IMG/VR virus record: IMGVR_UViG_2671181056_000001 | Direction: 5' to 3' (one strand) | Length of the DNA: 34,603 nucleotides | Source: a virus | Lineage: Duplodnaviria; Heunggongvirae; Uroviricota; Caudoviricetes | Shown here: positions 656 through 25,550 of the stretch, piece by piece | How positions within the stretch are numbered: position 1 is the first letter of the stretch | How the letters are laid out: every line of letters starts with the position of its first letter | Made by a program: the position numbers and the translations under genes | Notes under the pieces: model-generated | What the model saw: only the letters and a program-made list of their open reading frames with translations | Databases searched by the model: none | Told to the model about the DNA's origin: nothing

Positions 656-697
656 GTGATATGAGGGGGCGTAGTCTGCACGATTATCTAAATTGCT

Positions 698-1865: not shown

Positions 1866-5546
<3,681 letters not shown>

Positions 5547-5566
<20 letters not shown>

Positions 5567-6866: not shown

Positions 6867-6875
6867 GGGATGTTT

Positions 6876-7208
6876 ATGACGAGCAAAGAAACCTTTACCC
6901 ATTACCAGCCGCTGGGCAATAGTGACCCGGCTCATACCGCAACCGCGCCCGGCGGATTGAGTGCGAAAGCGCCTGCAATGACCCCGCTGATGCTGGACAC
7001 CTCCACCCGTAAGCTGGTTGCGTGGGATGGCACCACCGACGGTGCTGCCGTTGGCATTCTTGCGGTTGCTGCTGACCAGACCAGCACCACACTGACGTTC
7101 TACAAGTCCGGCACGTTCCGTTATGAGGATGTGCTCTGGCCGGAGGCTGCCAGCGACGAGACGAAAAAACGGACCGTGTTTGCCGGAACGGCAATCAGCA
7201 TCGTTTAA
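6876..7208 (+). CDS. D: head decoration protein D
   Basis: 110 aa [40 protein letters not shown]... lambda gpD; ORF-track start at 6870 is 2 codons upstream. Confidence 0.93.
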
Positions 7209-7263
7209 CTTTACCCTTCATCACTAAAGGCCGCCTGTGTGGCTTTTTTTACGGGATTTTTTT

Positions 7264-8289
7264 ATGTCGATGTACACAACCGCCCAGCTGCTGGCGGCAA
7301 ATGAGCAGAAATTTAAGTTTGATCCGCTGTTTCTGCGTCTCTTTTTCCGTGAGAGCTATCCCTTCACTACGGAGAAAGTCTATCTCTCACAAATTCCGGG
7401 ACTGGTAAACATGGCGCTGTACGTTTCGCCGATTGTTTCCGGTGAGGTTATCCGTTCCCGTGGCGGCTCCACCTCTGAATTTACGCCGGGATATGTCAAA
7501 CCCAAGCATGAGGTGAATCCGCAGATGACCCTGCGTCGCCTGCCGGATGAAGATCCGCAGAATCTGGCGGACCCGGCTTACCGCCGCCGTCGCATCATCA
7601 TGCAGAACATGCGTGACGAAGAGCTGGCCATTGCTCAGGTCGAAGAGATGCAGGCAGTTTCTGCCGTGCTCAAGGGCAAATACACCATGACCGGTGAAGC
7701 CTTCGATCCGGTTGAGGTGGATATGGGCCGCAGTGCGGCGAACAACATCACACAGTCCGGCGTCACGGAGTGGAGCAAGCGTGACAAGTCCACGTATGAC
7801 CCGACCGACGATATCGAAGCCTACGCGCTGAACGCCAGCGGTGTGGTGAATATCATCGTGTTTGACCCGAAAGGCTGGGCGCTGTTCCGTTCCTTCAAAG
7901 CCGTCAAGGAGAAGCTGGATACCCGTCGCGGCTCTCATTCCGAGCTGGAGACAGCGGTAAAAGACCTGGGCAAAGCGGTGTCCTATAAGGGAATGTATGG
8001 CGATGTGGCCATCGTCGTGTATTCCGGACAGTACGTGGAAAACGGCGTCAAAAAGAACTTCCTGCCGGACAACACGATGGTGCTGGGGAACACTCAGGCT
8101 CGCGGTCTGCGCACCTATGGCTGCATTCAGGATGCGGACGCACAGCGCGAAGGCATTAACGCTTCTGCCCGTTACCCGAAAAACTGGGTGACCACCGGCG
8201 ATCCGGCGCGTGAGTTCACCATGATTCAGTCAGCACCGCTGATGCTGCTGGCTGATCCTGATGAGTTCGTGTCCGTTCAACTGGCGTAA
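7264..8289 (+). CDS. E: major capsid protein E
   Basis: 341 aa from MSMYTTAQLLAANEQKFKFDPLFLRLFFRESYPF... lambda gpE. Confidence 0.95.
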   Translation: MSMYTTAQLLAANEQKFKFDPLFLRLFFRESYPFTTEKVYLSQIPGLVNMALYVSPIVSGEVIRSRGGSTSEFTPGYVKPKHEVNPQMTLRRLPDEDPQNLADPAYRRRRIIMQNMRDEELAIAQVEEMQAVSAVLKGKYTMTGEAFDPVEVDMGRSAANNITQSGVTEWSKRDKSTYDPTDDIEAYALNASGVVNIIVFDPKGWALFRSFKAVKEKLDTRRGSHSELETAVKDLGKAVSYKGMYGDVAIVVYSGQYVENGVKKNFLPDNTMVLGNTQARGLRTYGCIQDADAQREGINASARYPKNWVTTGDPAREFTMIQSAPLMLLADPDEFVSVQLA

Positions 8290-8330
8290 TCATGGCCCTT
8301 CGGGGCCATTTTCTCTCTGTGGAGGAGTTC

Positions 8331-8729
8331 ATGACGAAAGATGAACTGATTGCCCGTCTTCAGGAGCTGGGTGAGCAATTGAACCGCGATGTCAGTTTGA
8401 CGGGAACGAAAGAAGAACTGGCGCTTCGTGTGGCAGAGCTGGAAGAAGAGCTTGATGACACGGATGAAACTGCCGGTCAGGACACCCCTCTCAGCCGGGA
8501 AAATGTGCTGACCGGGCATGAAAATGAGGTGGTATCAGCGCAGCCGGATACCGTGATTCAGGATACGGCTGAACTGGTCACGGTCGTGGCACTGGTGACG
8601 CTGCATACTGATGCACTTCACGCCACGCGGGATAAACCTGTGGCATTTGTGCTGCCGGGAACGGCGTTTCGTGTCTCTGCCGGTGTGGCAGCCGAAATGA
8701 CAGAGCGCGGCCTGGCCAGAATGCAATAA
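8331..8729 (+). CDS. FI: DNA packaging protein FI
   Basis: 132 aa from MTKDELIARLQELGEQLNRDVSLTGTKEELALRVAELEEEL... lambda gpFI. Confidence 0.9.
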   Translation: MTKDELIARLQELGEQLNRDVSLTGTKEELALRVAELEEELDDTDETAGQDTPLSRENVLTGHENEVVSAQPDTVIQDTAELVTVVALVTLHTDALHATRDKPVAFVLPGTAFRVSAGVAAEMTERGLARMQ

Positions 8730-8740
8730 CGGGAGGCGCT

Positions 8741-9094
8741 GTGGCTGATTTCGATAACCTGTTCGATGCTGCCATTGCCCGCGCCGATGAAACGATACGC
8801 GGGTACATGGGAACGTCAGCCACCATGACATCCGGTGAGCAGTCAGGTGCGGTGATACGTGGTGTTTTTGATGACCCTGAAAATATCAGCTATGCCGGAC
8901 AGGGCGTGCGCGTTGAAGGCTCCAGCCCGTCCCTGTTTGTCCGGACTGATGAGGTGCGGCAGCTGCGGCGTGGAGACACGCTGACCATCGGTGAGGAAAA
9001 TTTCTGGGTAGATCGGGTTTCGCCGGATGATGGCGGAAGTTGTCATCTCTGGCTTGGACGGGGCGTACCGCCTGCCGTTAACCGTCGCCGCTGA
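8741..9094 (+). CDS. FII: head completion protein FII
   Basis: 117 aa MADFDNLFDAAIARADETIRGYMGTSAT... lambda gpFII. Confidence 0.93.
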   Translation: MADFDNLFDAAIARADETIRGYMGTSATMTSGEQSGAVIRGVFDDPENISYAGQGVRVEGSSPSLFVRTDEVRQLRRGDTLTIGEENFWVDRVSPDDGGSCHLWLGRGVPPAVNRRR

Positions 9095-9105
9095 AAGGGG
9101 GATGT

Positions 9106-9684
9106 ATGGCCATAAAAGGTCTTGAGCAGGCCGTTGAAAACCTCAGCCGTATCAGCAAAACGGCGGTGCCCGGTGCCGCCGCAATGGCCATTAACCGCGT
9201 TGCTTCATCCGCGATATCGCAGTCTGCGTCACAGGTTGCCCGTGAGACAAAGGTACGCCGGAAACTGGTAAAGGAAAGGGCCAGGCTGAAAAGGGCCACG
9301 GTCAAAAATCCGCAGGCCAGAATCAAAGTTAACCGGGGGGATTTGCCCGTAATCAAGCTGGGTAATGCGCGGGTTGTCCTGTCCCGCCGCAGGCGTCATA
9401 AAAAGGGGCAGCGTTCATCCCTGAAAGGTGGCGGCAGCGTGCTTGTGGTGGGTAACCGTCGTATTCCCGGCGCGTTTATTCAGCAACTGAAAAACGGCCG
9501 GTGGCATGTTATGCAGCGTGTGGCCGGGAAAAACCGTTACCCCATTGATGTGGTGAAAATCCCGATGGCGGTGCCGCTGACCACGGCGTTTAAACAGAAT
9601 ATTGAACGGATACGGCGTGAACGTCTTCCGAAAGAGCTGGGCTATGCGCTGCAGCATCAACTGAGAATGGTAATAAAGCGATGA
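9106..9684 (+). CDS. Z: tail completion protein Z
   Basis: 192 aa MAIKGLEQAVENLSRISKTAVPGAAAMAINRVASSAISQ... lambda gpZ. Confidence 0.93.
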   Translation: MAIKGLEQAVENLSRISKTAVPGAAAMAINRVASSAISQSASQVARETKVRRKLVKERARLKRATVKNPQARIKVNRGDLPVIKLGNARVVLSRRRRHKKGQRSSLKGGGSVLVVGNRRIPGAFIQQLKNGRWHVMQRVAGKNRYPIDVVKIPMAVPLTTAFKQNIERIRRERLPKELGYALQHQLRMVIKR

Positions 9685-10076
9685 AACATACTGAACTCCG
9701 TGCAGCCGTACTGGATGCACTGGAGAAGCATGACACCGGGGCGACGCTTTTTGATGGTCGCCCCGCTGTTTTTGATGAGGAAGATTTTCCGGCAATTGCC
9801 GTTTATCTCACCGGCGCTGAATACACGGGCGAAGAGCTGGACAGCGATACCTGGCAGGCGGAGCTGCATATTGAAGTTTTCCTGCCTGCTCAGGTGCCGG
9901 ATTCAGAGCTGGATTCGTGGATGGAGTCCCGGATTTATCCGGTGATGAGCGATATCCCGGCACTGTCAGATTTGATCACCAGTATGGTGGCCAGCGGCTA
10001 TGACTACCGGCGCGACGATGATGCGGGCCTGTGGAGTTCAGCCGATCTGACTTATGTCATTATCTATGAAATGTGA
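9681..10076 (+). CDS. U: tail terminator protein U
   Basis: 131 aa [38 protein letters not shown]... lambda gpU; start overlaps Z stop. Confidence 0.93.
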
Positions 10077-10083
10077 GGACGCT

Positions 10084-10824
10084 ATGCCTGTACCAAATCC
10101 TACAATGCCGGTGAAAGGTGCCGGGACCACCCTGTGGGTTTATAAGGGGAGCGGTGACCCTTATGCGAACCCGCTTTCAGACGTTGACTGGTCGCGTCTG
10201 GCAAAAGTTAAAGACCTGACGCCCGGCGAACTGACCGCTGAGTCCTATGACGACAGCTATCTCGATGATGAAGATGCAGACTGGACTGCGACCGGGCAGG
10301 GGCAGAAATCTGCCGGAGATACCAGCTTCACGCTGGCGTGGATGCCCGGAGAGCAGGGGCAGCAGGCGCTGCTGGCGTGGTTTAATGAAGGTGATACCCG
10401 TGCCTATAAAATCCGCTTCCCGAACGGCACGGTCGATGTGTTCCGTGGCTGGGTCAGCAGTATCGGTAAGGCGGTGACGGCGAAGGAGGTGATTACCCGC
10501 ACGGTGAAGGTCACCAATGTGGGACGTCCGTCGATGGCAGAAGATCGCAGCACGGTGACGGCGACGACCGGCATGACGGTGACACCCGCCAGTGCTTCCG
10601 TAGTGAAAGGGCAGAGCACCACGCTGACCGTGGCATTCCAGCCGGATGGCGCAACCGACAAGAGCTTCCGTGCGGTGTCTGCGGATAAAACAAAAGCCAC
10701 CGTGTCGGTCAGTGGTATGACCATCACCGTGAAAGGTGTTGCTGCAGGCAAGGTCAACATTCCGGTCGTATCTGGTAATGGTGAGTTTGCTGCGGTTGCA
10801 GAAATCAACGTCACCGCCAGTTAA
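10084..10824 (+). CDS. V: major tail tube protein V (with C-terminal Ig-like domain)
   Basis: 246 aa from [42 protein letters not shown]... lambda gpV. Confidence 0.95.
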
Positions 10825-10839
10825 TCCGGAGAGTCAGCG

Positions 10840-11262
10840 ATGTTCCTGAAAACCGAATCATTTGAACATAACGGTGTGACCGTCACGCTTTCTGAACTGT
10901 CAGCCCTGCAGCGTATTGAGCATCTCGACCTGATGAAACGGCAGGCAGAACAGGCGGAGTCAGACAGCAACCGGAAGTTTACTGTGGAAGACGCCATCAG
11001 AACCGGCGCTTTTGTGGTTGCGATGTCCCTGTGGCATAACCATCCGAAGAAGACGCAGATGCCGTCCATGAATGAAGCCGTTAAACAGATTGAGCAGGAA
11101 GTGCTTACCACCTGGCCCACAGAGGCAATTTCTCATGCTGAAAACGTGGTGTACCGGCTGTCCGGTATGTATGAGTTTGTGGTGAATGATGCTCCTGAAC
11201 AGGCAGAGGACGCCGGGCCTGCAGAGCCTGTTTCTGCGGGAAAGTGTTCGACGGTGAGCTGA
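10840..11262 (+). CDS. G: tail assembly chaperone G
   Basis: 140 aa MFLKTESFEHNGVTVTLSELSALQRIEHLDLMKRQAEQ... lambda gpG. Confidence 0.93.
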   Translation: MFLKTESFEHNGVTVTLSELSALQRIEHLDLMKRQAEQAESDSNRKFTVEDAIRTGAFVVAMSLWHNHPKKTQMPSMNEAVKQIEQEVLTTWPTEAISHAENVVYRLSGMYEFVVNDAPEQAEDAGPAEPVSAGKCSTVS

Positions 11263-11678
11263 GTTTTGCCCTGAAACTGGCGCGTGAGATGGGGCGACCC
11301 GACTGGCGCGCCATGCTTGCCGGGATGTCATCCACGGAGTATGCCGACTGGCACCGCTTTTACAGTACCCATTATTTTCATGATGTTCTGCTGGATATGC
11401 ACTTTTCCGGGCTGACGTACACCGTGCTCAGCCTGTTTTTCAGCGATCCGGAGATGCATCCGCTGGATTTCAGTCTGCTGAACCGGCGCGAGGCTGACGA
11501 AGAGCCTGAAGATGATGTGCTGATGCAGAAAGCGGCAGGGCTTGCCGGAGGTGTCCGCTTTGGCCCGGACGGGAATGAAGTTATCCCCGCTTCCCCGGAT
11601 GTGGCGGACATGACGGAGGATGACGTAATGCTGATGACAGTATCAGAAGGGATCGCAGGAGGAGTCCGGTATGGCTGA
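10840..11678 (+). CDS. T: tail assembly chaperone G-T fusion made by programmed -1 frameshift at slippery heptamer G GGA AAG (11238-11244); T-frame ORF 11244-11678
   Basis: Slippery sequence GGGAAAG sits in the XXXYYYZ register of the G frame 18 nt before the G stop; the 144-aa -1 frame ORF matches lambda gpT. Confidence 0.88.
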
Positions 11679-14232
11679 ACCGGTAGGCGATCTGGTCGTT
11701 GATTTGAGTCTGGATGCGGCCAGATTTGACGAGCAGATGGCCAGAGTCAGGCGTCATTTTTCCGGTACGGAAAGTGATGCGAAAAAAACAGCGGCAGTCG
11801 TTGAACAGTCGCTGAGCCGACAGGCGCTGGCTGCACAGAAAGCGGGGATTTCCGTCGGGCAGTATAAAGCCGCCATGCGTATGCTGCCTGCACAGTTCAC
11901 CGACGTGGCCACGCAGCTTGCAGGGGGGCAGAATCCCTGGCTGATCCTGCTGCAACAGGGTGGTCAGGTTAAGGACTCCTTCGGCGGGATGATCCCCATG
12001 TTCAGGGGGCTTGCCGGCGCGATCCCCCTGCCGATGGTGGGGGCCACCTCGCTGGCGGTGGCGACCGGTGCGCTGGCGTATGCCTGGTATCAGGGCAACT
12101 CAACCCTGTCCGATTTCAACAAAACGCTGGTCCTTTCCGGTAATCAGGCGGGACTGACGGCAGATCGTATGCTGGTCCTGTCCAGAGCCGGGCAGGCGGC
12201 AGGGCTGACGTTTAACCAGACCAGCGAGTCACTCAGCGCACTGGTTAAGGCGGGGGTAAGCGGTGAGGCTCAGATTGCGTCCATCAGCCAGAGTGTGGCG
12301 CGTTTCTCCTATGCATCCGGCGTGGAGGTGGACAAGGTCGCTGAAGCCTTCGGGAAGCTGACCACAGACCCGACGTCGGGGCTGACGGCGATGGCACGCC
12401 AGTTCCATAACGTGACGGCGGAGCAGATTGCGTATGTTGCTCAGTTGCAGCGTTCCGGCGATGAAGCCGGGGCATTGCAGGCGGCGAACGAGGCCGCAAC
12501 GAAAGGGTTTGATGACCAGACCCGCCGCCTGAAAGAGAACATGGGCACGCTGGAGACCTGGGCAGACAGGACTGCACGTGCATTCAAATCCATGTGGGAT
12601 GCGGTGCTGGATATTGGTCGTCCTGATACCGCGCAGGAGATGCTGATTAAGGCAGAGGCTGCGTTTAAGAAAGCAGACGACATCTGGAATCTGCGCAAGG
12701 ATGATTATTTCGTTAACGATGAAGCACGGGCGCGTTACTGGGATGATCGTGAAAAAAAACGCCTGGAGCGGGATGCAGCCCAAAAGAGGGTAGATCAACA
12801 GCGTCAACAGGACAAAAATGCGCAGCAGCAGAGCGATACCGAAGCGTCACGGCTGAAATATACCGAAGAGGCGCAGAAGGCTTACGAACGGCTGCAGACG
12901 CCGCTGGAGAAATATACCGCCCGTCAGGAAGAACTGAACAAGGCACTGAAAGACGGAAAAATCCTGCAGGCAGATTACAACACGCTGATGGCGGCGGCGA
13001 AAAAGGATTATGAAGCGACGCTGAAAAAGCCGAAACAGTCCGGCGTGAAGGTGTATGCGGGCGATCGTCAGGAAGACAGTGCTCATGCGGCCCTGCTGAC
13101 GCTTCAGGCAGAACTCCGGACGCTGGAGAAGCATGCCGGAGCGAATGAGAAAATCAGCCAGCAGCGCCGGGATTTGTGGAAGGCAGAAAGTCAGTTCGCG
13201 GTACTGGAGGAGGCGGCACAACGTCGCCAGCTGTCCGCACAGGAGAAATCCCTGCTGGCGCATAAAGACGAGACGCTGGAGTACAAACGCCAGCTGGCTG
13301 CACTTGGTGACAAGGTTACGTATCAGGAGCACCTGAATGCGCTGGCGCAGCAGGCGGATAAATTCGCACAGCAGCAACGGGCAAAACGGGCAGCCATTGA
13401 TGCGAAAAACCTGGGGCTGACTGACCGGCAGGCAGCGCGGGAAGCCACGGAACAGCGCCTGAAGGAACAGTATGGCGATAATCCTCTGGCGCTGAATAAC
13501 GTCATGTCAGAGCAGAAAAAGACCTGGGCGGCTGAAGACCAGCTTCGCGGGAGCTGGATGGCAGGCCTGAAGTCCGGCTGGAGTGAGTGGGAAGAGAGCG
13601 CCACGGACAGTATGTCACAGGTTAAAAGTGCAGCCACGCAGACCTTTGATGGTATTGCACAGAATATGGCGGCGATGCTGACCGGCAGTGAACAGAACTG
13701 GCGCAGCTTCACCCGCTCCGTGCTGTCCATGATGACAGAAATTCTGCTTAAGCAGGCAATGGTGGGGATTGTCGGGAGTATCGGCAGCGCCATTGGCGGG
13801 GCTGTTGGTGGCGGCGCATCCGCGTCAGGTGGTACAGCCATTCAGGCCGCTGCGGTGAAATTCCATTTTGCAACCGGGGGATTTACGGGAACCGGCGGCA
13901 AATATGAGCCAGCGGGGATTGTTCACCGTGGTGAATTTGTCTTCACGAAGGAGGCAACCAGCCGGATTGGCGTGGGGAATCTCTACCGGCTGATGCGCGG
14001 CTATGCGGAAGGTGGTTATGTGGGCGGTGCCGGAAGTCCGGCGCAGATGCGGCGGGCTGAAGGCATTAATTTTAATCAGAACAATCACGTGGTGATTCAG
14101 AACGACGGTACGAATGGTCTGCCAGGTCCACAGATGATGAAGGCCGTGTATGACATGGCCCGCAAGGGTGCCCGTGATGAAATTCAGACACAGATGCGTG
14201 ATGGTGGCCTGTTCTCCGGAGGTGGACGATGA
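11671..14232 (+). CDS. H: tail tape measure protein H (copy A, lambda-type C-terminus)
   Basis: 853 aa, same length as lambda gpH; MAEPVGDLVVDLSLDAARFDEQMARVRRHFSGTESDAKK... Confidence 0.95.
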   Translation: MAEPVGDLVVDLSLDAARFDEQMARVRRHFSGTESDAKKTAAVVEQSLSRQALAAQKAGISVGQYKAAMRMLPAQFTDVATQLAGGQNPWLILLQQGGQVKDSFGGMIPMFRGLAGAIPLPMVGATSLAVATGALAYAWYQGNSTLSDFNKTLVLSGNQAGLTADRMLVLSRAGQAAGLTFNQTSESLSALVKAGVSGEAQIASISQSVARFSYASGVEVDKVAEAFGKLTTDPTSGLTAMARQFHNVTAEQIAYVAQLQRSGDEAGALQAANEAATKGFDDQTRRLKENMGTLETWADRTARAFKSMWDAVLDIGRPDTAQEMLIKAEAAFKKADDIWNLRKDDYFVNDEARARYWDDREKKRLERDAAQKRVDQQRQQDKNAQQQSDTEASRLKYTEEAQKAYERLQTPLEKYTARQEELNKALKDGKILQADYNTLMAAAKKDYEATLKKPKQSGVKVYAGDRQEDSAHAALLTLQAELRTLEKHAGANEKISQQRRDLWKAESQFAVLEEAAQRRQLSAQEKSLLAHKDETLEYKRQLAALGDKVTYQEHLNALAQQADKFAQQQRAKRAAIDAKNLGLTDRQAAREATEQRLKEQYGDNPLALNNVMSEQKKTWAAEDQLRGSWMAGLKSGWSEWEESATDSMSQVKSAATQTFDGIAQNMAAMLTGSEQNWRSFTRSVLSMMTEILLKQAMVGIVGSIGSAIGGAVGGGASASGGTAIQAAAVKFHFATGGFTGTGGKYEPAGIVHRGEFVFTKEATSRIGVGNLYRLMRGYAEGGYVGGAGSPAQMRRAEGINFNQNNHVVIQNDGTNGLPGPQMMKAVYDMARKGARDEIQTQMRDGGLFSGGGR

Positions 14233-14558
14233 AAACCTTCCGCTGGAAAGTGAAACCCGGTATGGATGTGGCTTCGGCCCCTTCTGTAAGAAAGGTGCGC
14301 TTTGGTGATGGCTATTCCCAGCGAGCGCCTGCCGGGCTGAATGCCAACCTGAAAACGTACAGCGTGACGCTTTCTGTCCCCCGTGAGGAGGCCATGGTAC
14401 TGGAGTCGTTTCTGGAAGAGCACGGGGGCTGGAAAGCCTTTCTGTGGACGCCGCCTTATGAGTGGCGGCAGATAAAGGTGACCTGCGCAAAATGGTCGTC
14501 GCGGGTCAGTATGCTGCGTGTTGAGTTCAGCGCAGAGTTTGAACAGGTGGTGAACTGA
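14229..14558 (+). CDS. M: tail tip protein M (copy A, lambda-type)
   Basis: 109 aa MKTFRWKVKPGMDVASAPSVRKVRFGDGYSQRAPAGLNANLKTY... lambda gpM; start overlaps H stop. Confidence 0.93.
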   Translation: MKTFRWKVKPGMDVASAPSVRKVRFGDGYSQRAPAGLNANLKTYSVTLSVPREEAMVLESFLEEHGGWKAFLWTPPYEWRQIKVTCAKWSSRVSMLRVEFSAEFEQVVN

Positions 14559-15256
14559 TGCAGGATATCCGGCAGGAAACACTGAATGAATGCACCCGTG
14601 CGGAGCAGTCGGCCAGCGTGGTGCTCTGGGAAATCGATCTGACAGAGGTCGGTGGAGAACGTTATTTTTTCTGTAATGAGCAGAACGAAAAAGGTGAGCC
14701 GGTCACCTGGCAGGGGCGACAGTATCAGCCGTATCCCATTCAGGGGAGTGGTTTTGAACTGAATGGCAAAGGCACCAGTACGCGCCCCACGCTGATGGTT
14801 TCTAACCTGTACGGTATGGTCACCGGGATGGCGGAAGATCTACAGAGTCTGGTCGGCGGAACGGTGGTCCGGCGTAAGGTTTACGCCCGTTTTCTGGATG
14901 CGGTGAACTTCGTCAACGGAAACAGTGACGCCGATCCGGAGCAGGAGGTGATCAGCCGCTGGCGCATTGAGCAGTGCAGCGAACTGAGCGCGGTGAGTGC
15001 CTCTTTTGTACTGTCCACGCCGACGGAAACAGATGGCGCTGTTTTTCCGGGACGTATCATGCTGGCCAACACCTGCACCTGGACCTATCGCGGCGATGAG
15101 TGCGGTTATCACGGTCCGGCGGTCGCGGATGAATATGACCAGCCAACGTCCGACATCACGAAGGATAAATGCAGCAAATGCCTGAGTGGCTGTAAGTTTC
15201 GCAATAACGTCGGCAACTTTGGCGGCTTCCTTTCCATTAACAAACTTTCGCAGTAA
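14558..15256 (+). CDS. L: tail tip protein L (copy A)
   Basis: 232 aa, lambda gpL-like with conserved cysteine cluster (CxxC...C) near C-terminus. Confidence 0.93.
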   Translation: MQDIRQETLNECTRAEQSASVVLWEIDLTEVGGERYFFCNEQNEKGEPVTWQGRQYQPYPIQGSGFELNGKGTSTRPTLMVSNLYGMVTGMAEDLQSLVGGTVVRRKVYARFLDAVNFVNGNSDADPEQEVISRWRIEQCSELSAVSASFVLSTPTETDGAVFPGRIMLANTCTWTYRGDECGYHGPAVADEYDQPTSDITKDKCSKCLSGCKFRNNVGNFGGFLSINKLSQ

Positions 15257-15261
15257 ATCCC

Positions 15262-16005
15262 ATGACAGAGACAGAATCAGCGATTCTGGCGCACGCCCGG
15301 CGATGTGCTCCAGCGGAGTCGTGCGGCTTCGTGGTAAGAACGCCGGAGGGGGAAAGATATTTCCCCTGCGTGAATATCTCCGGTGAGCCGGAGGCGTATT
15401 TCCGTATGTCGCCGGAAGACTGGCTGCAGGCAGAGATGCAGGGTGAGATTGTGGCACTGGTCCACAGCCACCCCGGTGGTCTGCCCTGGCTGAGTGAGGC
15501 CGACCGGCGGCTGCAGGTGCAGAGTGATTTGCCGTGGTGGCTGGTCTGCCGGGGGGCGATTCACAAGTTCCGCTGTGTGCCACATCTTACCGGGCGGCGC
15601 TTTGAGCACGGGGTGACGGACTGTTACACGCTGTTCCGGGATGCTTACCATCTGGCGGGGATTGAGATGCCGGATTTTCATCGTGAGGATGACTGGTGGC
15701 GTCACGGTCAGAATCTCTATCTGGATAATCTGGAGGCCACAGGGCTGTATCAGGTGCCGTTGTCAGCGGCGCAGCCGGGCGATGTGCTGCTGTGCTGTTT
15801 TGGTTCATCGGTGCCGAATCATGCCGCCATTTACTGTGGTGACGGCGAGCTGCTGCACCATATTCCTGAACAACTGAGCAAACGAGAGAGGTATACCGAC
15901 AAATGGCAGCGACGCACACACTCCCTCTGGCGTTACCGGGCATGGCACGCATCTGCCTTTACGGGGATTTGCAACGATTTGGCCGCCGCATCGACCTTCG
16001 TGTGA
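15262..16005 (+). CDS. K: tail tip assembly protein K, long form with JAB/MPN (HSHPGG...SEAD) and NlpC/P60-like regions (copy A)
   Basis: 247-aa ORF; the C-terminal 199 aa correspond to lambda K as I recall its annotation; the N-terminal extension carries the Glu upstream of the HxH motif. Confidence 0.85.
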   Translation: MTETESAILAHARRCAPAESCGFVVRTPEGERYFPCVNISGEPEAYFRMSPEDWLQAEMQGEIVALVHSHPGGLPWLSEADRRLQVQSDLPWWLVCRGAIHKFRCVPHLTGRRFEHGVTDCYTLFRDAYHLAGIEMPDFHREDDWWRHGQNLYLDNLEATGLYQVPLSAAQPGDVLLCCFGSSVPNHAAIYCGDGELLHHIPEQLSKRERYTDKWQRRTHSLWRYRAWHASAFTGICNDLAAASTFV

Positions 16006-16253
16006 AAACGGGTGCCGAAGCCATCCGGGCGATGGCCACACAGCTCCCTGCGTTTCGTCAGAAGCTGAGCGACGGCTGGTATCAGGTGCGTATTGCCGGG
16101 CAGGATGTTAGCACGTCCGGATTAACGGCACAGTTACATGAGGCTCTGCCTGACGGCGCTGTGATTCATATTGTTCCCAGAGTCGCCGGGGCCAAGTCAG
16201 GTGGTGTATTCCAGATTGTCCTGGGAGCAGCCGCCATTGCCGGATCATTCTTT
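15903..16253 (+). pseudogene. I: tail tip assembly protein I, 5' 117 codons only, cut at N (16254)
   Basis: MAATHTLPLALPGMARICLYGDLQRFGRRIDLRVKTG... matches lambda gpI; overlaps K 3' end by 103 nt as in lambda; homology stops at the N. Confidence 0.85.
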
Positions 16254-16254
16254 N

Positions 16255-16407
16255 CTGATCTCCTGAGATACCACACGTGACCCCACGCGCATTTCACCAT
16301 ACAGAACAGGCATAACATTGCCCTGGGCAACCATGTTATCCAGTGAGGAGAAATAGGTGTTCTGCTTACCGTTATCCGTTGTCTGTGTGCGGGGAGTTCT
16401 GGCTTTC
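16255..16407 (-). pseudogene. I: inverted fragment of gene I 3' region (codons for ...APKARTPRTQTTDNGKQNTYFSSLDNMVAQGNVMPVLYGEMRVGSRVVSQEI)
   Basis: Minus-strand translation matches the lambda gpI C-terminal region; no start or stop of its own; directly abuts the N at 16254. Confidence 0.8.
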
Positions 16408-16833
16408 GGTGGTGGTGCGTCTGCCTCCACGGGGACGGCCATTCAGGCTGCGGCGGCGAACTTCCATTTCGCGACCGGGGGATTTACGGGGACGGGGGGT
16501 AAATATGAACCTGCGGGGATTGTTCATCGCGGGGAGTTTGTCTTCACGAAGGAGGCGACCAGCCGGATTGGTGTCGGCAATCTGTACCGCCTGATGCGGG
16601 GCTATGCGGAAGGTGGTTATGTCGGCGGTGCCGGAAGTCCGGCGCAGATGCGGCGGGCGGAAGGCATTAATTTTAATCAGAACAATCACGTGGTGATTCA
16701 GAACGACGGCCCCAACGGGCGGGCAGGGCCGCAGCTGATGAAAGCGGTGTATGAGATGGCCCGCAAGGGGGCACAGGATGAACTCCGGCTGCAGTTGCGT
16801 GATGGCGGTATGTTATCAGGGAGCGGTGGATGA
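16408..16833 (+). pseudogene. H: 3' fragment of a tape measure gene H (third allele), no 5' part
   Basis: Encodes GGGASASTGTAIQAAAANFHFATGGFTGTGGKYEPAGIVHRGEFVF...GMLSGSGG; many synonymous differences from both full H copies over 16408-16660, then identical to copy B. Confidence 0.8.
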
Positions 16834-17159
16834 AAACCTTTCGCTGGAAAGTGAAGCCGGATATGGAGGTGAACTCGCAGCCATCGGTGCGTGAAGTGCG
16901 TTTTGGTGACGGGTACTCACAGCGTATGGCGGCAGGGCTGAATGCTGACCTGAAAACATACAGGGTGACGCTTTCCGTGACCCGGGAGGAGGCCCGGCAT
17001 CTGGAAGCGTTCCTGGCAGAGCACGGTGGCTGGAAGGCATTTTTGTGGAAGCCACCCTATGCATACCGGCAGATAAAGGTGACCTGTGCCGGGTGGTCTG
17101 CGCGGGTCGGGATGTTGCGCGTTGAGTTCAGCGCGGAGTTTAAGCAGGTGGTGAACTGA
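16830..17159 (+). CDS. M: tail tip protein M (B-type allele, identical to 22981-23310)
   Basis: 109 aa MKTFRWKVKPDMEVNSQPSVREVRFGDGYSQRMAAGLNADLKTYRV... Confidence 0.85.
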   Translation: MKTFRWKVKPDMEVNSQPSVREVRFGDGYSQRMAAGLNADLKTYRVTLSVTREEARHLEAFLAEHGGWKAFLWKPPYAYRQIKVTCAGWSARVGMLRVEFSAEFKQVVN

Positions 17160-17857
17160 TGCAGGATATTCGCGAAGAAAGTCTGAACGAGTCGGTTAAG
17201 TCAGAGCAGTCACCGCGGGTGGTACTCTGGGAAATCGACCTGACGGTACAGGGTGGTGAGCGGTATTTTTTCTGTAATGAGCTGAATGAAAAAGGGGAGC
17301 CGGTCACCTGGCAGGGGCGTAAGTATGAGGCATACCCGATTGACGGCAGCGGCTTTGAGATGAACGGCCGGGGCAGCAGTGCCAGACCGTCGCTGACGGT
17401 GTCCAATCTGTTCGGTCTGGTCACCGGGATGGCGGAAGACCTGCAGAGTCTGGTGGGGGCCACGGTGGTCCGCCGCCGGGTGTATGCCCGTTTTCTGGAT
17501 GCGGTGAATTTCGTTGCGGGCAATCCGGAGGCGGACCCGGAGCAGGAGCTGAGTGACCGCTGGGTGGTGGAGCAGATGTCGCAGCTGACAGCCATGACGG
17601 CCTCGTTTGTGCTGGCTACACCGACCGAGACGGACGGGGCGCTGTTTCCCGGTCGCATCATGCTGGCGAACACCTGTATGTGGGATTACCGGGGAGATGA
17701 ATGCGGGTATAACGGTCCTGCGGTGGCGGATGAGTTCGACAACCCCACCACGGATATCCGTAAGGACAGATGCAGCAAGTGCATGCGCGGGTGTGAACTG
17801 CGCAGGAATGTCGGCAATTTTGGCGGTTTCCTTTCCATTAATAAACTTTCGCAGTAA
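17159..17857 (+). CDS. L: tail tip protein L (B-type allele, identical to 23310-24008)
   Basis: 232 aa, about 80 percent identical to copy A L. Confidence 0.85.
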   Translation: MQDIREESLNESVKSEQSPRVVLWEIDLTVQGGERYFFCNELNEKGEPVTWQGRKYEAYPIDGSGFEMNGRGSSARPSLTVSNLFGLVTGMAEDLQSLVGATVVRRRVYARFLDAVNFVAGNPEADPEQELSDRWVVEQMSQLTAMTASFVLATPTETDGALFPGRIMLANTCMWDYRGDECGYNGPAVADEFDNPTTDIRKDRCSKCMRGCELRRNVGNFGGFLSINKLSQ

Positions 17858-17867
17858 ATCCCGGTTT

Positions 17868-18540
17868 ATGACACAGACTGAATCAGCGATTCTGGCACAT
17901 GCCCGGCGGTGTGCGCCTGCGGAGTCGTGCGGCTTCGTGATAAGCACGCCGGAGGGGGAGCGGTATATCCCTTGTGTGAATATTTCCGCAGAGCCGGAGG
18001 CGTATTTTCGTATCGCACCGGAAGACTGGCTGCGGGCAGAGATGCAGGGGGAGATTGTGGCACTGGTCCACAGTCATCCCGGTGGGCTGCCCTGGCTGAG
18101 CGAGGCTGACCGGCGGTTGCAGATAAAAAGCGCACTGCCCTGGTGGTTGGTCTGCCGGGGTGACATTCACAAATTCCGCTGTGTGCCACATCTGACAGGA
18201 CGGCGCTTTGAGCACGGGGTGACGGACTGTTACACGCTGTTCCGGGATGCTTATCATCTGGCGGGGACTGAAATGCCGGATTTTCATCGCGAGGATGACT
18301 GGTGGCGCAACGGTCAGAACCTTTACCTGGACAATATGGCGGTCACCGGCTTTTACCGGGTGCCCCTGTCCTCTGCACAGGCGGGCGATATTCTGCTGTG
18401 CTGCTTTGGTGCTTCGGTACCGAACCATGCCGCCATTTACTGCGGCAACGGTGAGCTGCTTCACCATCTGCCTGAACAACTGAGTAAACGGGAGAGGTAT
18501 TCCGAAAAATGGCAACGACGAACGCATTCAGTCTGGCGTC
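17868..18540 (+). pseudogene. K: tail tip assembly protein K (B-type), 3' end missing, cut at N (18541)
   Basis: Identical to 24019-24691 then broken at the N; the six-frame ORF continues artificially into U-derived sequence. Confidence 0.8.
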
Positions 18541-18541
18541 N

Positions 18542-18828
18542 CGGCAATTGCCGTTTATCTCACCGGCGCTGAATACACGGGCGAAGAGCTGGACAGCGAT
18601 ACCTGGCAGGCGGAGCTGCATATTGAAGTTTTCCTGCCTGCTCAGGTGCCGGATTCAGAGCTGGATTCGTGGATGGAGTCCCGGATTTATCCGGTGATGA
18701 GCGATATCCCGGCACTGTCAGATTTGATCACCAGTATGGTGGCCAGCGGCTATGACTACCGGCGCGACGATGATGCGGGCCTGTGGAGTTCAGCCGATCT
18801 GACTTATGTCATTATCTATGAAATGTGA
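18542..18828 (+). pseudogene. U: 3' fragment of tail terminator gene U (starts mid-gene right after N)
   Basis: Identical to 9790-10076; encodes ...[93 protein letters not shown]. Confidence 0.85.
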
Positions 18829-18835
18829 GGACGCT

Positions 18836-19576
18836 ATGCCTGTACCAAATCCTACAATGCCGGTGAAAGGTGCCGGGACCACCCTGTGGGTTTATAAGGG
18901 GAGCGGTGACCCTTATGCGAACCCGCTTTCAGACGTTGACTGGTCGCGTCTGGCAAAAGTTAAAGACCTGACGCCCGGCGAACTGACCGCTGAGTCCTAT
19001 GACGACAGCTATCTCGATGATGAAGATGCAGACTGGACTGCGACCGGGCAGGGGCAGAAATCTGCCGGAGATACCAGCTTCACGCTGGCGTGGATGCCCG
19101 GAGAGCAGGGGCAGCAGGCGCTGCTGGCGTGGTTTAATGAAGGTGATACCCGTGCCTATAAAATCCGCTTCCCGAACGGCACGGTCGATGTGTTCCGTGG
19201 CTGGGGCAGCAGTATCGGTAAGGCGGTGACGGCGAAGGAGGTGATTACCCGCACGGTGAAGGTCACCAATGTGGGACGTCCGTCGATGGCAGAAGATCGC
19301 AGCACGGTGACGGCGACGACCGGCATGACGGTGACACCCGCCAGTGCTTCCGTAGTGAAAGGGCAGAGCACCACGCTGACCGTGGCATTCCAGCCGGATG
19401 GCGCAACCGACAAGAGCTTCCGTGCGGTGTCTGCGGATAAAACAAAAGCCACCGTGTCGGTCAGTGGTATGACCATCACCGTGAAAGGTGTTGCTGCAGG
19501 CAAGGTCAACATTCCGGTCGTATCTGGTAATGGTGAGTTTGCTGCGGTTGCAGAAATCAACGTCACCGCCAGTTAA
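18836..19576 (+). CDS. V: major tail tube protein V (second copy)
   Basis: Offset 8752 from copy A; one amino-acid difference (RGWGSS vs RGWVSS). Confidence 0.9.
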
Positions 19577-19591
19577 TCCGGAGAGTCAGCG

Positions 19592-20014
19592 ATGTTCCTG
19601 AAAACCGAATCATTTGAACATAACGGTGTGACCGTCACGCTTTCTGAACTGTCAGCCCTGCAGCGTATTGAGCATCTCGACCTGATGAAACGGCAGGCAG
19701 AACAGGCGGAGTCAGACAGCAACCGGAAGTTTACTGTGGAAGACGCCATCAGAACCGGCGCTTTTGTGGTTGCGATGTCCCTGTGGCATAACCATCCGAA
19801 GAAGACGCAGATGCCGTCCATGAATGAAGCCGTTAAACAGATTGAGCAGGAAGTGCTTACCACCTGGCCCACAGAGGCAATTTCTCATGCTGAAAACGTG
19901 GTGTACCGGCTGTCCGGTATGTATGAGTTTGTGGTGAATGATGCTCCTGAACAGGCAGAGGACGCCGGGCCTGCAGAGCCTGTTTCTGCGGGAAAGTGTT
20001 CGACGGTGAGCTGA
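19592..20014 (+). CDS. G: tail assembly chaperone G (second copy)
   Basis: Identical to 10840-11262. Confidence 0.9.
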   Translation: MFLKTESFEHNGVTVTLSELSALQRIEHLDLMKRQAEQAESDSNRKFTVEDAIRTGAFVVAMSLWHNHPKKTQMPSMNEAVKQIEQEVLTTWPTEAISHAENVVYRLSGMYEFVVNDAPEQAEDAGPAEPVSAGKCSTVS

Positions 20015-20430
20015 GTTTTGCCCTGAAACTGGCGCGTGAGATGGGGCGACCCGACTGGCGCGCCATGCTTGCCGGGATGTCATCCACGGAGTATGCCGAC
20101 TGGCACCGCTTTTACAGTACCCATTATTTTCATGATGTTCTGCTGGATATGCACTTTTCCGGGCTGACGTACACCGTGCTCAGCCTGTTTTTCAGCGATC
20201 CGGAGATGCATCCGCTGGATTTCAGTCTGCTGAACCGGCGCGAGGCTGACGAAGAGCCTGAAGATGATGTGCTGATGCAGAAAGCGGCAGGGCTTGCCGG
20301 AGGTGTCCGCTTTGGCCCGGACGGGAATGAAGTTATCCCCGCTTCCCCGGATGTGGCGGACATGACGGAGGATGACGTAATGCTGATGACAGTATCAGAA
20401 GGGATCGCAGGAGGAGTCCGGTATGGCTGA
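19592..20430 (+). CDS. T: tail assembly chaperone G-T frameshift fusion (second copy; slippery site 19990-19996)
   Basis: Identical to copy A, including the GGGAAAG heptamer. Confidence 0.85.
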
Positions 20431-22984
20431 ACCGGTAGGCGATCTGGTCGTTGATTTGAGTCTGGATGCGGCCAGATTTGACGAGCAGATGGCCAGAGTC
20501 AGGCGTCATTTTTCCGGTACGGAAAGTGATGCGAAAAAAACAGCGGCAGTCGTTGAACAGTCGCTGAGCCGACAGGCGCTGGCTGCACAGAAAGCGGGGA
20601 TTTCCGTCGGGCAGTATAAAGCCGCCATGCGTATGCTGCCTGCACAGTTCACCGACGTGGCCACGCAGCTTGCAGGGGGGCAGAATCCCTGGCTGATCCT
20701 GCTGCAACAGGGTGGTCAGGTTAAGGACTCCTTCGGCGGGATGATCCCCATGTTCAGGGGGCTTGCCGGCGCGATCACCCTGCCGATGGTGGGGGCCACC
20801 TCGCTGGCGGTGGCGACCGGTGCGCTGGCGTATGCCTGGTATCAGGGCAACTCAACCCTGTCCGATTTCAACAAAACGCTGGTCCTTTCCGGTAATCAGG
20901 CGGGACTGACGGCAGATCGTATGCTGGTCCTGTCCAGAGCCGGGCAGGCGGCAGGGCTGACGTTTAACCAGACCAGCGAGTCACTCAGCGCACTGGTTAA
21001 GGCGGGGGTAAGCGGTGAGGCTCAGATTGCGTCCATCAGCCAGAGTGTGGCGCGTTTCTCCTATGCATCCGGCGTGGAGGTGGACAAGGTCGCTGAAGCC
21101 TTCGGGAAGCTGACCACAGACCCGACGTCGGGGCTGACGGCGATGGCACGCCAGTTCCATAACGTGACGGCGGAGCAGATTGCGTATGTTGCTCAGTTGC
21201 AGCGTTCCGGCGATGAAGCCGGGGCATTGCAGGCGGCGAACGAGGCCGCAACGAAAGGGTTTGATGACCAGACCCGCCGCCTGAAAGAGAACATGGGCAC
21301 GCTGGAGACCTGGGCAGACAGGACTGCACGTGCATTCAAATCCATGTGGGATGCGGTGCTGGATATTGGTCGTCCTGATACCGCGCAGGAGATGCTGATT
21401 AAGGCAGAGGCTGCGTTTAAGAAAGCAGACGACATCTGGAATCTGCGCAAGGATGATTATTTCGTTAACGATGAAGCACGGGCGCGTTACTGGGATGATC
21501 GTGAAAAAAAACGCCTGGAGCGGGATGCAGCCCAAAAGAGGGTAGATCAACAGCGTCAACAGGACAAAAATGCGCAGCAGCAGAGCGATACCGAAGCGTC
21601 ACGGCTGAAATATACCGAAGAGGCGCAGAAGGCTTACGAACGGCTGCAGACGCCGCTGGAGAAATATACCGCCCGTCAGGAAGAACTGAACAAGGCACTG
21701 AAAGACGGAAAAATCCTGCAGGCAGATTACAACACGCTGATGGCGGCGGCGAAAAAGGATTATGAAGCGACGCTGAAAAAGCCGAAACAGTCCGGCGTGA
21801 AGGTGTATGCGGGCGATCGTCAGGAAGACAGTGCTCATGCGGCCCTGCTGACGCTTCAGGCAGAACTCCGGACGCTGGAGAAGCATGCCGGAGCGAATGA
21901 GAAAATCAGCCAGCAGCGCCGGGATTTGTGGAAGGCAGAAAGTCAGTTCGCGGTACTGGAGGAGGCGGCACAACGTCGCCAGCTGTCCGCACAGGAGAAA
22001 TCCCTGCTGGCGCATAAAGACGAGACGCTGGAGTACAAACGCCAGCTGGCTGCACTTGGTGACAAGGTTACGTATCAGGAGCACCTGAATGCGCTGGCGC
22101 AGCAGGCGGATAAATTCGCACAGCAGCAACGGGCAAAACGGGCAGCCATTGATGCGAAAAACCTGGGGCTGACTGACCGGCAGGCAGCGCGGGAAGCCAC
22201 GGAACAGCGCCTGAAGGAACAGTATGGCGATAATCCTCTGGCGCTGAATAACGTCATGTCAGAGCAGAAAAAGACCTGGGCGGCTGAAGACCAGCTTCGC
22301 GGGAGCTGGATGGCAGGCCTGAAGTCCGGCTGGAGTGAGTGGGAAGAGAGCGCCACGGACAGTATGTCACAGGTTAAAAGTGCAGCCACGCAGACCTTTG
22401 ATGGTATTGCACAGAATATGGCGGCGATGCTGACCGGCAGTGAACAGAACTGGCGCAGCTTCACCCGCTCCGTGCTGTCCATGATGACAGAAATTCTGCT
22501 TAAGCAGGCAATGGTGGGGATTGTCGGGAGTATCGGCAGGGCCATTGGCGGGGCTGTTGGTGGCGGCGCATCCGCGTCAGGTGGTACAGCCATTCAGGCC
22601 GCTGCGGTGAAATTCCATTTTGCAACCGGGGGATTTACGGGAACCGGCGGCAAATATGAGCCAGCGGGGATTGTTCACCGTGGTGAATTTGTCTTCACGA
22701 AGGAGGCAACCAGCCGGATTGGCGTGGGGAATCTCTACCGGCTGATGCGCGGCTATGCGGAAGGTGGTTATGTGGGCGGTGCCGGAAGTCCGGCGCAGAT
22801 GCGGCGGGCTGAAGGCATTAATTTTAATCAGAACAATCACGTGGTGATTCAGAACGACGGCCCCAACGGGCGGGCAGGGCCGCAGCTGATGAAAGCGGTG
22901 TATGAGATGGCCCGCAAGGGGGCACAGGATGAACTCCGGCTGCAGTTGCGTGATGGCGGTATGTTATCAGGGAGCGGTGGATGA
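20423..22984 (+). CDS. H: tail tape measure protein H (copy B, divergent last ~40 codons)
   Basis: 853 aa; identical to copy A except two substitutions until codon ~813, then a different C-terminus (PNGRAGPQLMKAVYEMARKGAQDELRLQLRDGGMLSGSGG). Confidence 0.93.
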   Translation: MAEPVGDLVVDLSLDAARFDEQMARVRRHFSGTESDAKKTAAVVEQSLSRQALAAQKAGISVGQYKAAMRMLPAQFTDVATQLAGGQNPWLILLQQGGQVKDSFGGMIPMFRGLAGAITLPMVGATSLAVATGALAYAWYQGNSTLSDFNKTLVLSGNQAGLTADRMLVLSRAGQAAGLTFNQTSESLSALVKAGVSGEAQIASISQSVARFSYASGVEVDKVAEAFGKLTTDPTSGLTAMARQFHNVTAEQIAYVAQLQRSGDEAGALQAANEAATKGFDDQTRRLKENMGTLETWADRTARAFKSMWDAVLDIGRPDTAQEMLIKAEAAFKKADDIWNLRKDDYFVNDEARARYWDDREKKRLERDAAQKRVDQQRQQDKNAQQQSDTEASRLKYTEEAQKAYERLQTPLEKYTARQEELNKALKDGKILQADYNTLMAAAKKDYEATLKKPKQSGVKVYAGDRQEDSAHAALLTLQAELRTLEKHAGANEKISQQRRDLWKAESQFAVLEEAAQRRQLSAQEKSLLAHKDETLEYKRQLAALGDKVTYQEHLNALAQQADKFAQQQRAKRAAIDAKNLGLTDRQAAREATEQRLKEQYGDNPLALNNVMSEQKKTWAAEDQLRGSWMAGLKSGWSEWEESATDSMSQVKSAATQTFDGIAQNMAAMLTGSEQNWRSFTRSVLSMMTEILLKQAMVGIVGSIGRAIGGAVGGGASASGGTAIQAAAVKFHFATGGFTGTGGKYEPAGIVHRGEFVFTKEATSRIGVGNLYRLMRGYAEGGYVGGAGSPAQMRRAEGINFNQNNHVVIQNDGPNGRAGPQLMKAVYEMARKGAQDELRLQLRDGGMLSGSGG

Positions 22985-23310
22985 AAACCTTTCGCTGGAA
23001 AGTGAAGCCGGATATGGAGGTGAACTCGCAGCCATCGGTGCGTGAAGTGCGTTTTGGTGACGGGTACTCACAGCGTATGGCGGCAGGGCTGAATGCTGAC
23101 CTGAAAACATACAGGGTGACGCTTTCCGTGACCCGGGAGGAGGCCCGGCATCTGGAAGCGTTCCTGGCAGAGCACGGTGGCTGGAAGGCATTTTTGTGGA
23201 AGCCACCCTATGCATACCGGCAGATAAAGGTGACCTGTGCCGGGTGGTCTGCGCGGGTCGGGATGTTGCGCGTTGAGTTCAGCGCGGAGTTTAAGCAGGT
23301 GGTGAACTGA
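22981..23310 (+). CDS. M: tail tip protein M (B-type)
   Basis: 109 aa; start overlaps H stop. Confidence 0.9.
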   Translation: MKTFRWKVKPDMEVNSQPSVREVRFGDGYSQRMAAGLNADLKTYRVTLSVTREEARHLEAFLAEHGGWKAFLWKPPYAYRQIKVTCAGWSARVGMLRVEFSAEFKQVVN

Positions 23311-24008: not shown

Positions 24009-24018
24009 ATCCCGGTTT

Positions 24019-25340: not shown

Positions 25341-25385
25341 AAAGAATAAAAAAATCCCGCAGTGATCGCGGACAGGAACTGCGGG
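25341..25385 (-). terminator. intrinsic terminator on minus strand (stem CCCGCAG/CTGCGGG 25356-25385, then U-tract read from 25355 down to 25341)
   Basis: Minus-strand read: CCCGCAG-16 nt loop-CTGCGGG followed by ATTTTTTTATTCTTT. Confidence 0.5.
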
Positions 25386-25444
25386 AGAGTTACGAAGATT
25401 AAGTGTAAGGAATTATTCTTATATCACGACAAAAAAATTAACGC
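25341..25444 (-). ncRNA. candidate ~100-nt small RNA between promoter (25451-25478) and terminator, transcribed opposite to the tail operon
   Basis: Sequence-only prediction: promoter plus terminator bracket a segment with no ATG-initiated ORF; no homology check possible here. Confidence 0.3.
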
Positions 25445-25450
25445 AGAGAA

Positions 25451-25478
25451 ATTATACGCGCCACAGTCAGTTTGTGAA
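25451..25478 (-). promoter_or_regulatory. predicted sigma70 promoter on minus strand: TTCACA - 16 nt - TATAAT
   Basis: Minus-strand read TTCACAaactgactgtggcgcgTATAAT (-10 = complement of 25451-25456, -35 = complement of 25473-25478). Confidence 0.5.
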
Positions 25479-25550
25479 AATGTGAAGATATTCAGAATTT
25501 TTATGCCATTACCGGTTTTAACCAACAGGATTATCGGTGGGCATGAAAGA

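Follow-up and report, generated by a model that had tools for sequence, protein, structure and literature searches.

The tail genes of lambdoid phages are mosaic, and lambda, HK97, N15 and the prophages of Escherichia coli and Shigella all show the results of module exchange at short conserved sequences. We consider here a 34603-nt stretch of DNA catalogued as viral in IMG/VR (IMGVR_UViG_2671181056_000001; 'the window' means the whole of it), in which the tape-measure gene H and the tail genes that follow it, M, L, K and I, appear twice, as copies A and B, with a partial set, fragment C, between them. Gene order and protein families mark these genes as a lambda-type tail module, both copies giving the Pfam matches TMP_2 and Tape_meas_lam_C, Phage_min_tail, Phage_tail_L, Prok-JAB and NlpC/P60, and Lambda_tail_I. 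In lambda itself, residues 818-842 of gpH form a three-helix coiled coil in the lumen of the tail tip, on the gpI trimer (PMC10721106).

The window is the complete whole-genome shotgun (WGS) record CXFJ01000052.1 (GCA_001255095.1), obtained from Shigella sonnei run ERR042787, and an exact protein look-up found the H protein of copy B (H_B) on this contig only. The supplement of Page et al. (2016; PMC5320598) lists CXFJ01000001-406 as Shigella sonnei (ERP000568, ERS025888, ERR042787). In that pipeline, Velvet (k = 66-90% of read length) was followed by scaffolding with SSPACE and then by 120 iterations of GapFiller, which was given the reads without proper-pair mapping, and its authors described SSPACE and GapFiller as greedy and prone to false joins (PMC5320598). 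GapFiller grows the edges of a gap base by base, using 30-mers (29-nt overlap), a depth of at least 2 and a majority ratio of 0.7, and closes the gap once the sequences grown from its two sides share 10 nt or more, 10 nt being the default minimum (Boetzer & Pirovano, 2012; PMC3446322). A literature search for a paper on ERP000568 found none, and another, on short-read misassembly of lambdoid prophages, gave nothing directly usable.

The evidence set out below makes it very probable that the window is a chimera of two resident lambdoid prophages that arose during assembly and gap-filling, superimposed on ordinary lambdoid mosaicism, and that copy B is most likely a hybrid made in silico.

Two parental prophages account for the scaffold

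The first parent (A-type) is an intact lambda-like prophage present in closed S. sonnei genomes, including CP000038 (which we take to be S. sonnei Ss046), where its genes run in the order Z-U-V-G-T-H(853 aa)-M-L-K-I-J-lom-stf-tfa. The second (C-type) is a prophage remnant cut by IS21 upstream of Z, with an 857-aa H and the M-L-K-I cassette seen in copy B. Its gene J (25957-29135) is split into ORFs of 547 and 513 aa; because closed chromosomes have the same split and the same IS21 cut upstream of Z, the C-type prophage is a genuine defective remnant. The tail genes of the two parents are about 78% identical from V to H (64-88% in the body of H), 85-100% identical over a 300-nt island ending just before H codon 814 (98-100% over 14023-14108), and about 77% identical from 14109 through I, while some parts of J, lom and stf scarcely differ between them.

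We painted the window using the sites that distinguish the A-type from the C-type sequence of closed genomes, which gave the following layout (+ and - give the strand; each single N is read, from the sequence evidence, as a presumed unclosed scaffold gap).

1-16253 (+): block 1, A-type late region, beginning at Nu1 and breaking off halfway through gene I; its colinear relatives are phages lambda (96.6%) and Chlobot (97.7%); 1508 informative sites, all A-type except the polymorphic site 9941
16254: single N, taken to be an unclosed scaffold gap; A-type colinearity (gene I) ends at 16253
16255-16411 (-): inverted piece of A-type gene I, 157 nt, normally found 116-272 nt past the end of block 1
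16402-16411: 10-nt overlap, GCTTTCGGTG, fusing the inverted gene I piece to the 3' end of C-type H
16402-18540 (+): block 2, C-type: H codons 711-857 (C-type numbering), M, L and the 5' part of K; 418 of 418 sites C-type
18541: single N, taken to be an unclosed scaffold gap; C-type K/I on the left, A-type gene U on the right
18542-22810 (+): A-type part of block 3 (U', V, G, T and H codons 1-796), a second rendering of 9790-14058; 961 sites, A-type except at the same polymorphic site (18693 = 9941)
22811-22860: block of 50 nt with one and the same sequence in all three copies (14059-14108 in A, 16660-16709 in C), within which A-type gives way to C-type
22861-27939 (+): C-type part of block 3, from H codons 814-853 to the frameshifted J; 1134 of 1134 sites C-type
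27940-29497 (+): rest of block 3 (3' end of J, and lom), with sites in the order A (7), C (225), A (3), C (6), A (24)
29498-29509: twelve N, the flanks being two alleles of one lom segment
29510-34603 (+): block 4, C-type in lom and the 5' end of stf up to 31048 (164 sites), A-type in the 3' end of stf and tfa from 31154 (1338 sites)

Among the roughly 5800 informative sites, just one (in block 4) fits neither parent, and all segments are explained by sequences found elsewhere in the genome. The scaffold changes parent ten times. Seven of the changes lie within blocks 3 and 4, each in a stretch of 42-105 nt that contains no informative site; the others are at the N at 16254, the 10-nt join and the N at 18541. 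Wherever block 3 departs from the closed-genome C-type sequence past 27939, it does so to the A-type allele. The change within H is inside the 50-nt block at 22811-22860. Few exact A/C matches in the V to K region are longer than this block, and a further one, of 35 nt, is separated from it by one mismatch on the upstream side. The C-type part of block 2 begins after a 29-nt block shared by the two parents.

The match of the individual pieces to their parents is close. Block 1 is 99.97% identical over 4558-16253 to closed chromosomes including CP000038. Block 2 is 100.000% identical over its 2139 nt to N-free IMG/VR records (L091/L143) and to closed chromosomes (L176-L180), 16402-17000 being also 100% identical to E. 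coli CFT073, and 22811-27939 shows 0 differences from the closed chromosomes L176/L179. The prophage with the frameshifted J was found in ten places, among them five chromosome-scale records (four CP accessions and UGZB01000001), and in 10 of 10 the B cassette was preceded by the C-type 857-aa H and the C-type left arm, which is only about 78% identical to the A-type arm; the arrangement of copy B, with an A-type arm, did not recur in any of these places.

Comparison of the window with itself by BLAST gives three matches: 9790-16099 with 18542-24856 (93.3%), 16401-18545 with 22552-24696 (98.1%) and 13800-15933 with 16401-18539 (80.5%). Over the 4319 nt that end with H codon 813 (9790-14108 in copy A, 18542-22860 in copy B) there are 3 differences, at 10454 (in V), 12025 and 13788 (both in H). 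In a sliding comparison of the two copies with bins of 100 nt, those between 9799 and 14098 all show 99-100% identity, and those beyond that point, through M, L, K and I, 63-95% (mostly 72-86%). The dense differences begin at 14109/22861, with about 77% identity beyond and some 410 differences over the next 1990 nt, against 3 in the preceding 4319 nt; this step is far beyond chance. In protein terms, identity between the copies is 99.6% for H residues 1-813, 65% for H 814-853, 80.7% for M, 77.2% for L, 85.9% for K and 67.8% for I. Fragment C (16402-18540) differs from copy B by 38 substitutions in 16405-16659, with 4 amino-acid changes in the stretch compared, and by none in 16660-18540, which repeats 22811-24691. 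The last difference between C and B is at 22810, and the first between A and B at 22861. The genes concerned are as follows.

11671-14232 (+): H_A, in block 1
14109-14232 (+): Hc, the last 40 codons of H_A, where A/C divergence starts; it matches the tip-embedded C-terminal helix of lambda gpH
14229-14558 (+): M_A, block 1
14558-15256 (+): L_A, block 1
15262-16005 (+): K_A, block 1
15903-16253 (+): I_A, truncated, block 1
16402-16833 (+): 3' part of C-type H (the 'third allele' discussed below), block 2
16830-17159 (+): C-type M, block 2
17159-17857 (+): C-type L, block 2
22861-22984 (+): H_B codons 814-853, block 3
22981-23310 (+): M_B, block 3
23310-24008 (+): L_B, block 3
24016-24762 (+): K_B, block 3
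24660-25340 (+): I_B, block 3

A preliminary description of the window, made from its letters alone, had already recorded the pattern correctly: H genes identical but for two substitutions as far as about 14109/22861, an abrupt rather than uniform divergence from there through the last 40 or so codons of H into M, L, K and I, and a fragment C with its own H 3' allele that becomes the same as copy B from about 16660. The biological conclusions that it drew have to be revised in part. From fragment C it had deduced a third H allele and at least three tail-tip lineages in the source genome. Since the B cassette follows a C-type H in all ten of these places, the 'third allele' is the true H of the B cassette, and the M-L-K of fragment C is the same cassette as that of copy B; as all of the scaffold can be derived from two parents, a third lineage need not be assumed, and on the sequence we count two tail lineages in the scaffold, not three. 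Nor is the proposal that identical H genes are attached to two different cassettes supported as a property of the genome, given that copy B lies in a block alternating between parents, shares a private variant with copy A (see below) and has no counterpart in a closed genome.

Gap characters, a 10-nt join and the order of the pieces

N characters occur at three sites in the window: one N at 16254, one at 18541 and twelve at 29498-29509. Each is the exact point at which colinearity breaks, and there is redundancy across them, 18542-22860 repeating 9790-14108. A literature search found no statement that a single N denotes an unclosed gap in the output of SSPACE and GapFiller.

After the first N, positions 16255-16411 are a 100% match to the reverse strand of the A-type prophage (8141-8297 of L006, L008 and L012; 11812-11968 of L195, which is CP000038). 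The reverse-complement match reaches 16411 and the C-type match begins at 16402, so that exactly 10 nt are shared, the same as the default merge overlap of GapFiller; the fusion at 16402-16411 is most likely a false closure of a gap. When the join sequences were scanned against IMG/VR and the GTDB species-representative genomes there were no matches, and in none of 5426 complete E. coli genomes is 15700-17000 contiguous.

Two ORFs run across these joins. One, of 158 aa (16357-16833), passes from the inverted gene I piece into the 3' end of H across the 10-nt overlap; it has no Pfam match, and it has been called as a gene in the public record, where it constitutes a spurious database protein. 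The other, of 265 aa (29203-30000), crosses the twelve-N gap and is not a real gene product: the flanks of this gap, 29312-29497 and 29510-29695, are 87% identical to each other and both map to 13356-13541 of the closed chromosome L176, the left one being A-type-like and the right one C-type. Further to the right, a 1019-aa side-tail-fibre ORF (30152-33211) goes from C-type to A-type within 105 nt (31049-31153) lacking informative sites and may be chimeric; this is less certain, closed genomes differing among themselves in this region through IS insertions and invertible segments.

Could the layout be taken at face value, as a tandem partial triplication of the tail module within one prophage (U'-V-G-T-H-M-L-K-I' / H'-M-L-K' / U'-V-G-T-H-M-L-K-I-J), with the N characters merely ambiguous base calls? 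The segments do lie head to tail, on one strand of one record. Against this, each N marks the precise point of a break in colinearity, and what comes next after the first of them is a stretch of the interrupted gene I itself in reverse orientation. The junctions were not found in IMG/VR, in the GTDB representatives or in the 5426 complete E. coli genomes. In closed S. sonnei genomes the two prophages stand apart, each of the ordinary kind, and sister scaffolds order the same pieces differently. We find a real triplication scarcely credible.

Two apparent natural examples of K-I next to a partial H and M in complete E. coli genomes dissolved on inspection. The one suggested by match H31 was a normal prophage whose BLAST pieces had been merged out of order, and that suggested by match H33 consisted of two facing prophage remnants in E. 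coli strain IH5. In this closed genome (L001, NZ_CP168269.1 4804048-4810125) a tRNA-Ala gene and an rRNA operon enclose two truncated K-I-J tail remnants in head-to-head orientation, the end of a prophage being present here as an inverted duplicate. The sister scaffolds just mentioned comprise several IMG/VR records (L003, L004, L007/L145, L009, L010 and L156) and FTXS01000063.1 (L182). They carry single N characters or short runs of N, at which redundant tail genes switch alleles, and their pieces are joined in differing orders; several of them are catalogued as viral contigs, some with two M genes.

The following course of events would give rise to such a scaffold. The scaffolder would have linked contigs from both prophages. 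A greedy k-mer gap filler (29-nt overlap, 10-nt merge), walking outward from the gap edges, would then have laid down redundant sequence, and would have hopped between the prophages wherever an exact block was common to both. Copy B would represent such a walk, C-type from 22861 rightwards and A-type from 22810 leftwards, with the hop in 22811-22860, and fragment C would be the true left neighbour of the B cassette. We infer that GapFiller, rather than Velvet, was behind each hop, and the order of events is deduced in the same way.

One locus rendered twice, or a hybrid prophage?

Copy A and the left part of copy B were compared with 10 A-type loci of public assemblies (7 of these loci being on chromosome-scale sequences), the counts given here being of loci at which the site is readable. 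Both copies have T at one site (13412 in A, 22164 in B; context aaaaccTgggg) where all 7 of the readable loci have G; the T may be a real SNP of this isolate or a systematic error made in both renderings. The three bases by which the copies differ are each private to one copy, and all look like miscalls.

12025 (+; copy A): C for A, giving P119 for T119; all 8 related loci and all 7 readable A-type loci have A
19206 (+; copy B, = 10454): G for T; all 37 related loci and all 9 readable A-type loci have T
22540 (+; copy B, = 13788): G for C, giving R706 for S706; C in 44 of 44 related loci and in 10 of 10 A-type loci

Each of the three has GGC within 10 nt upstream, and in each the wrong base repeats the preceding base (contexts gtggctgggT>G, atcggcagC>G and ccggcgcgatcA>C), which is the pattern of sequence-specific error described for Illumina reads (Nakamura et al.). 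GGC being upstream of 25% of positions, the chance that three random substitutions would all conform is about (0.25 x 1/3)^3 = 6e-4. A fourth miscall-like base (15934, C>T after tctggcgt) is near the end of block 1. Reads bearing such errors may well have been enriched among the reads without proper pairing that were fed to GapFiller. Thus, instead of independent and biologically plausible differences between the copies, we find a shared private variant at 13412 and miscall-like differences, and on these grounds the two copies appear to be a single locus that was written out two times.

The most serious competitor of a chimera made in silico is a real third prophage, with an A-type left arm and a C-type right arm, formed by recent RecA-dependent recombination of the two resident prophages with each other in the nearly identical 50-86-nt zone near the 3' end of H. 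It might have come about by an unequal exchange that duplicated the interval, or through an inversion polymorphism within the sequenced culture, and might be confined to a sub-population of that culture; the scaffold would then be messy but the junction real. Several observations do weigh in this direction and against mis-assembly. The B junction (22770-22900) contains no N. The 50-nt block within it ranks with the longest exact A/C matches from V to K, and this also makes it the place where a crossover in vivo would be most likely. A string identical to the 131 nt of the junction occurs in the closed E. coli genome CP195410, in which an A-like H 3' end (97-98% over about 430 nt) is followed by B-type Hc and M at 100%, so that joining an A-like H 3' end to a B tip is biologically possible; and in natural populations there are H-3' alleles that occur with both types of M. 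A reciprocal arrangement, C-type on the left (1155 sites) and A-type on the right (1132 sites), is seen in an N-free contig (L011, IMGVR_UViG_2698536458_000001), which switches at 5080-5116, in the shared block of 35 nt that adjoins the one of 50 nt. This contig may be the reciprocal product of the proposed event; it could reflect real recombination between the two resident prophages of the lineage, or be a contig-level chimera itself. Lastly, when the ends at 16253, 18540 and 18542 were compared with the exact blocks shared by A and C, no block that would explain them was found, and the left end of block 3 at 18542 (= 9790) in particular coincides with none.

On the other side, block 3 goes on to switch parent five more times to the right of H, each time to the exact allele of the other prophage, which is better accounted for by mis-threading than by a single exchange, and the copies share the isolate-specific variant and differ only in miscall-like ways. 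All the closed genomes that have the remnant, and the contiguous drafts as well, show a C-type left arm. The record comes from a greedy gap-filling pipeline and has a 10-nt false join 6.4 kb upstream of the junction; moreover, Velvet would be expected to collapse a true duplicate of 4.3 kb. Searches for the junction point the same way. A 433-nt sequence spanning it had no match of at least 99% in the 5426 complete E. coli genomes (the best was 97.5%), and among 80 IMG/VR loci with M of the B type none combined an A-type H 3' end (at least 99%) with the Hc of copy B (HcB) in one copy, N-containing scaffolds alone holding both, in separate copies. We therefore regard a real hybrid prophage as improbable and a gap-filling chimera as much the better account of the window. 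Were the hybrid real, a tail-tip swap between co-resident prophages would have been caught in the act, at a defined micro-site of 50 nt, and would have equipped a lambda-type tube and tape measure with the C-terminal helix, and with the tip cassette, of the other prophage; this would be of modest interest for phage evolution.

The practical meaning of the chimera is one of caution over public scaffolds with single N characters, some of which are in IMG/VR as viral contigs. They may be misread as evidence for tandem duplications of tail modules, recombinant tape-measure genes or additional prophage lineages, and they give rise to spurious proteins, which here are the hybrid H with R706, the H with P119, the 158-aa ORF and possibly a chimeric side tail fibre. 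The underlying biology is ordinary: two S. sonnei prophages with a conserved island at the 3' end of H, ending where the tip-embedded helix begins.

The H C-terminus as a natural boundary, and comparison with known systems

The preliminary description had also placed a recombination breakpoint at the C-terminus of H. This stands in so far as the sharp step in identity at H codons 813/814 is also found between the genuine A-type and C-type parents, and in that natural genomes, CP195410 among them, show exchange in this zone; what does not stand is the junction in copy B as an instance of it, that junction being most likely an artefact. A natural mosaic junction at codons 813/814 exists, and is ordinary lambdoid mosaicism. 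In a survey of 127 distinct H-M-L sequences from IMG/VR (a biased sample, the loci having been chosen by similarity to two M alleles), there were nine clusters of Hc alleles, each accompanying one of the two M types, while the H-3' clusters 5 and 7 were found with both. Pairwise breakpoints concentrated at 13800-14255, and the partners on the two sides of the boundary differ across independent genomes. A per-column scan of diversity, in which the conserved island might have stood out as a hotspot, gave a flat profile in this biased sample.

Lambda provides another example. Its H (L196) is 97-98% identical to the A-type gene except in a patch corresponding to aa 780-822 (14000-14196), where nucleotide identity falls to 71.5% and the A-type sequence matches the C-type up to residue 813. 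The patch looks like a natural conversion tract, ending in a hypervariable linker (814-822) before the conserved C-terminal helix; residues 823-853 of H_A are identical to lambda gpH. At the next border downstream, a protein identical to L_B follows a 1080-aa tape measure of HK97 type and a 113-aa M in other genomes (L174, L175), an arrangement that shows a natural mosaic joint between M and L.

It had further been suggested that the C-terminus of H travels with M. This is not supported as a rule: one M allele (at least 98.5% identical) was found with four Hc alleles about 25% apart in nucleotides. Co-evolution of the C-terminal helix of H with gpI, an idea prompted by the structure of the lambda tip, was considered likewise, and discarded. 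The adjusted mutual information (AMI) of Hc was 0.66 with the neighbouring H segment, 0.62 with L, 0.53 with M and 0.41 with the C-terminus of I, and one I C-terminal allele occurred with three Hc alleles. The association of allele clusters merely decays with distance, and, in a sample biased to two M types, Hc showed no association with M or the I C-terminus beyond this.

Three known systems offer points of comparison. With the lambda tail tip (PMC10721106), the likeness is that the divergent codons 814-853 cover the part of H that is embedded in the tip, and it is plausible, by analogy, that this embedding is the reason for a border at 814; the difference is that the allele clusters studied here show no special coupling of the H C-terminus to I. 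With lambdoid mosaicism in general, the prophages share a step in A/C identity directly after a conserved island, with other partners in other genomes, but the near-identical H genes on two cassettes in this window most likely came together in silico and not in a natural event. The closest likeness is to the mis-joins of Velvet, SSPACE and GapFiller assemblies (PMC5320598, PMC3446322): the record comes from this very pipeline, N characters stand at the joins with redundant sequence across the gaps, one merge is of exactly 10 nt, the switches between paralogues lie in exact blocks longer than the 29-nt extension overlap, and the low-evidence bases fit the Illumina error pattern. It differs from these in no essential respect, although its redundant walk is unusually long, covering some 4.3 kb of A-type sequence (some 6.1 kb when the duplicated C-type part is included).

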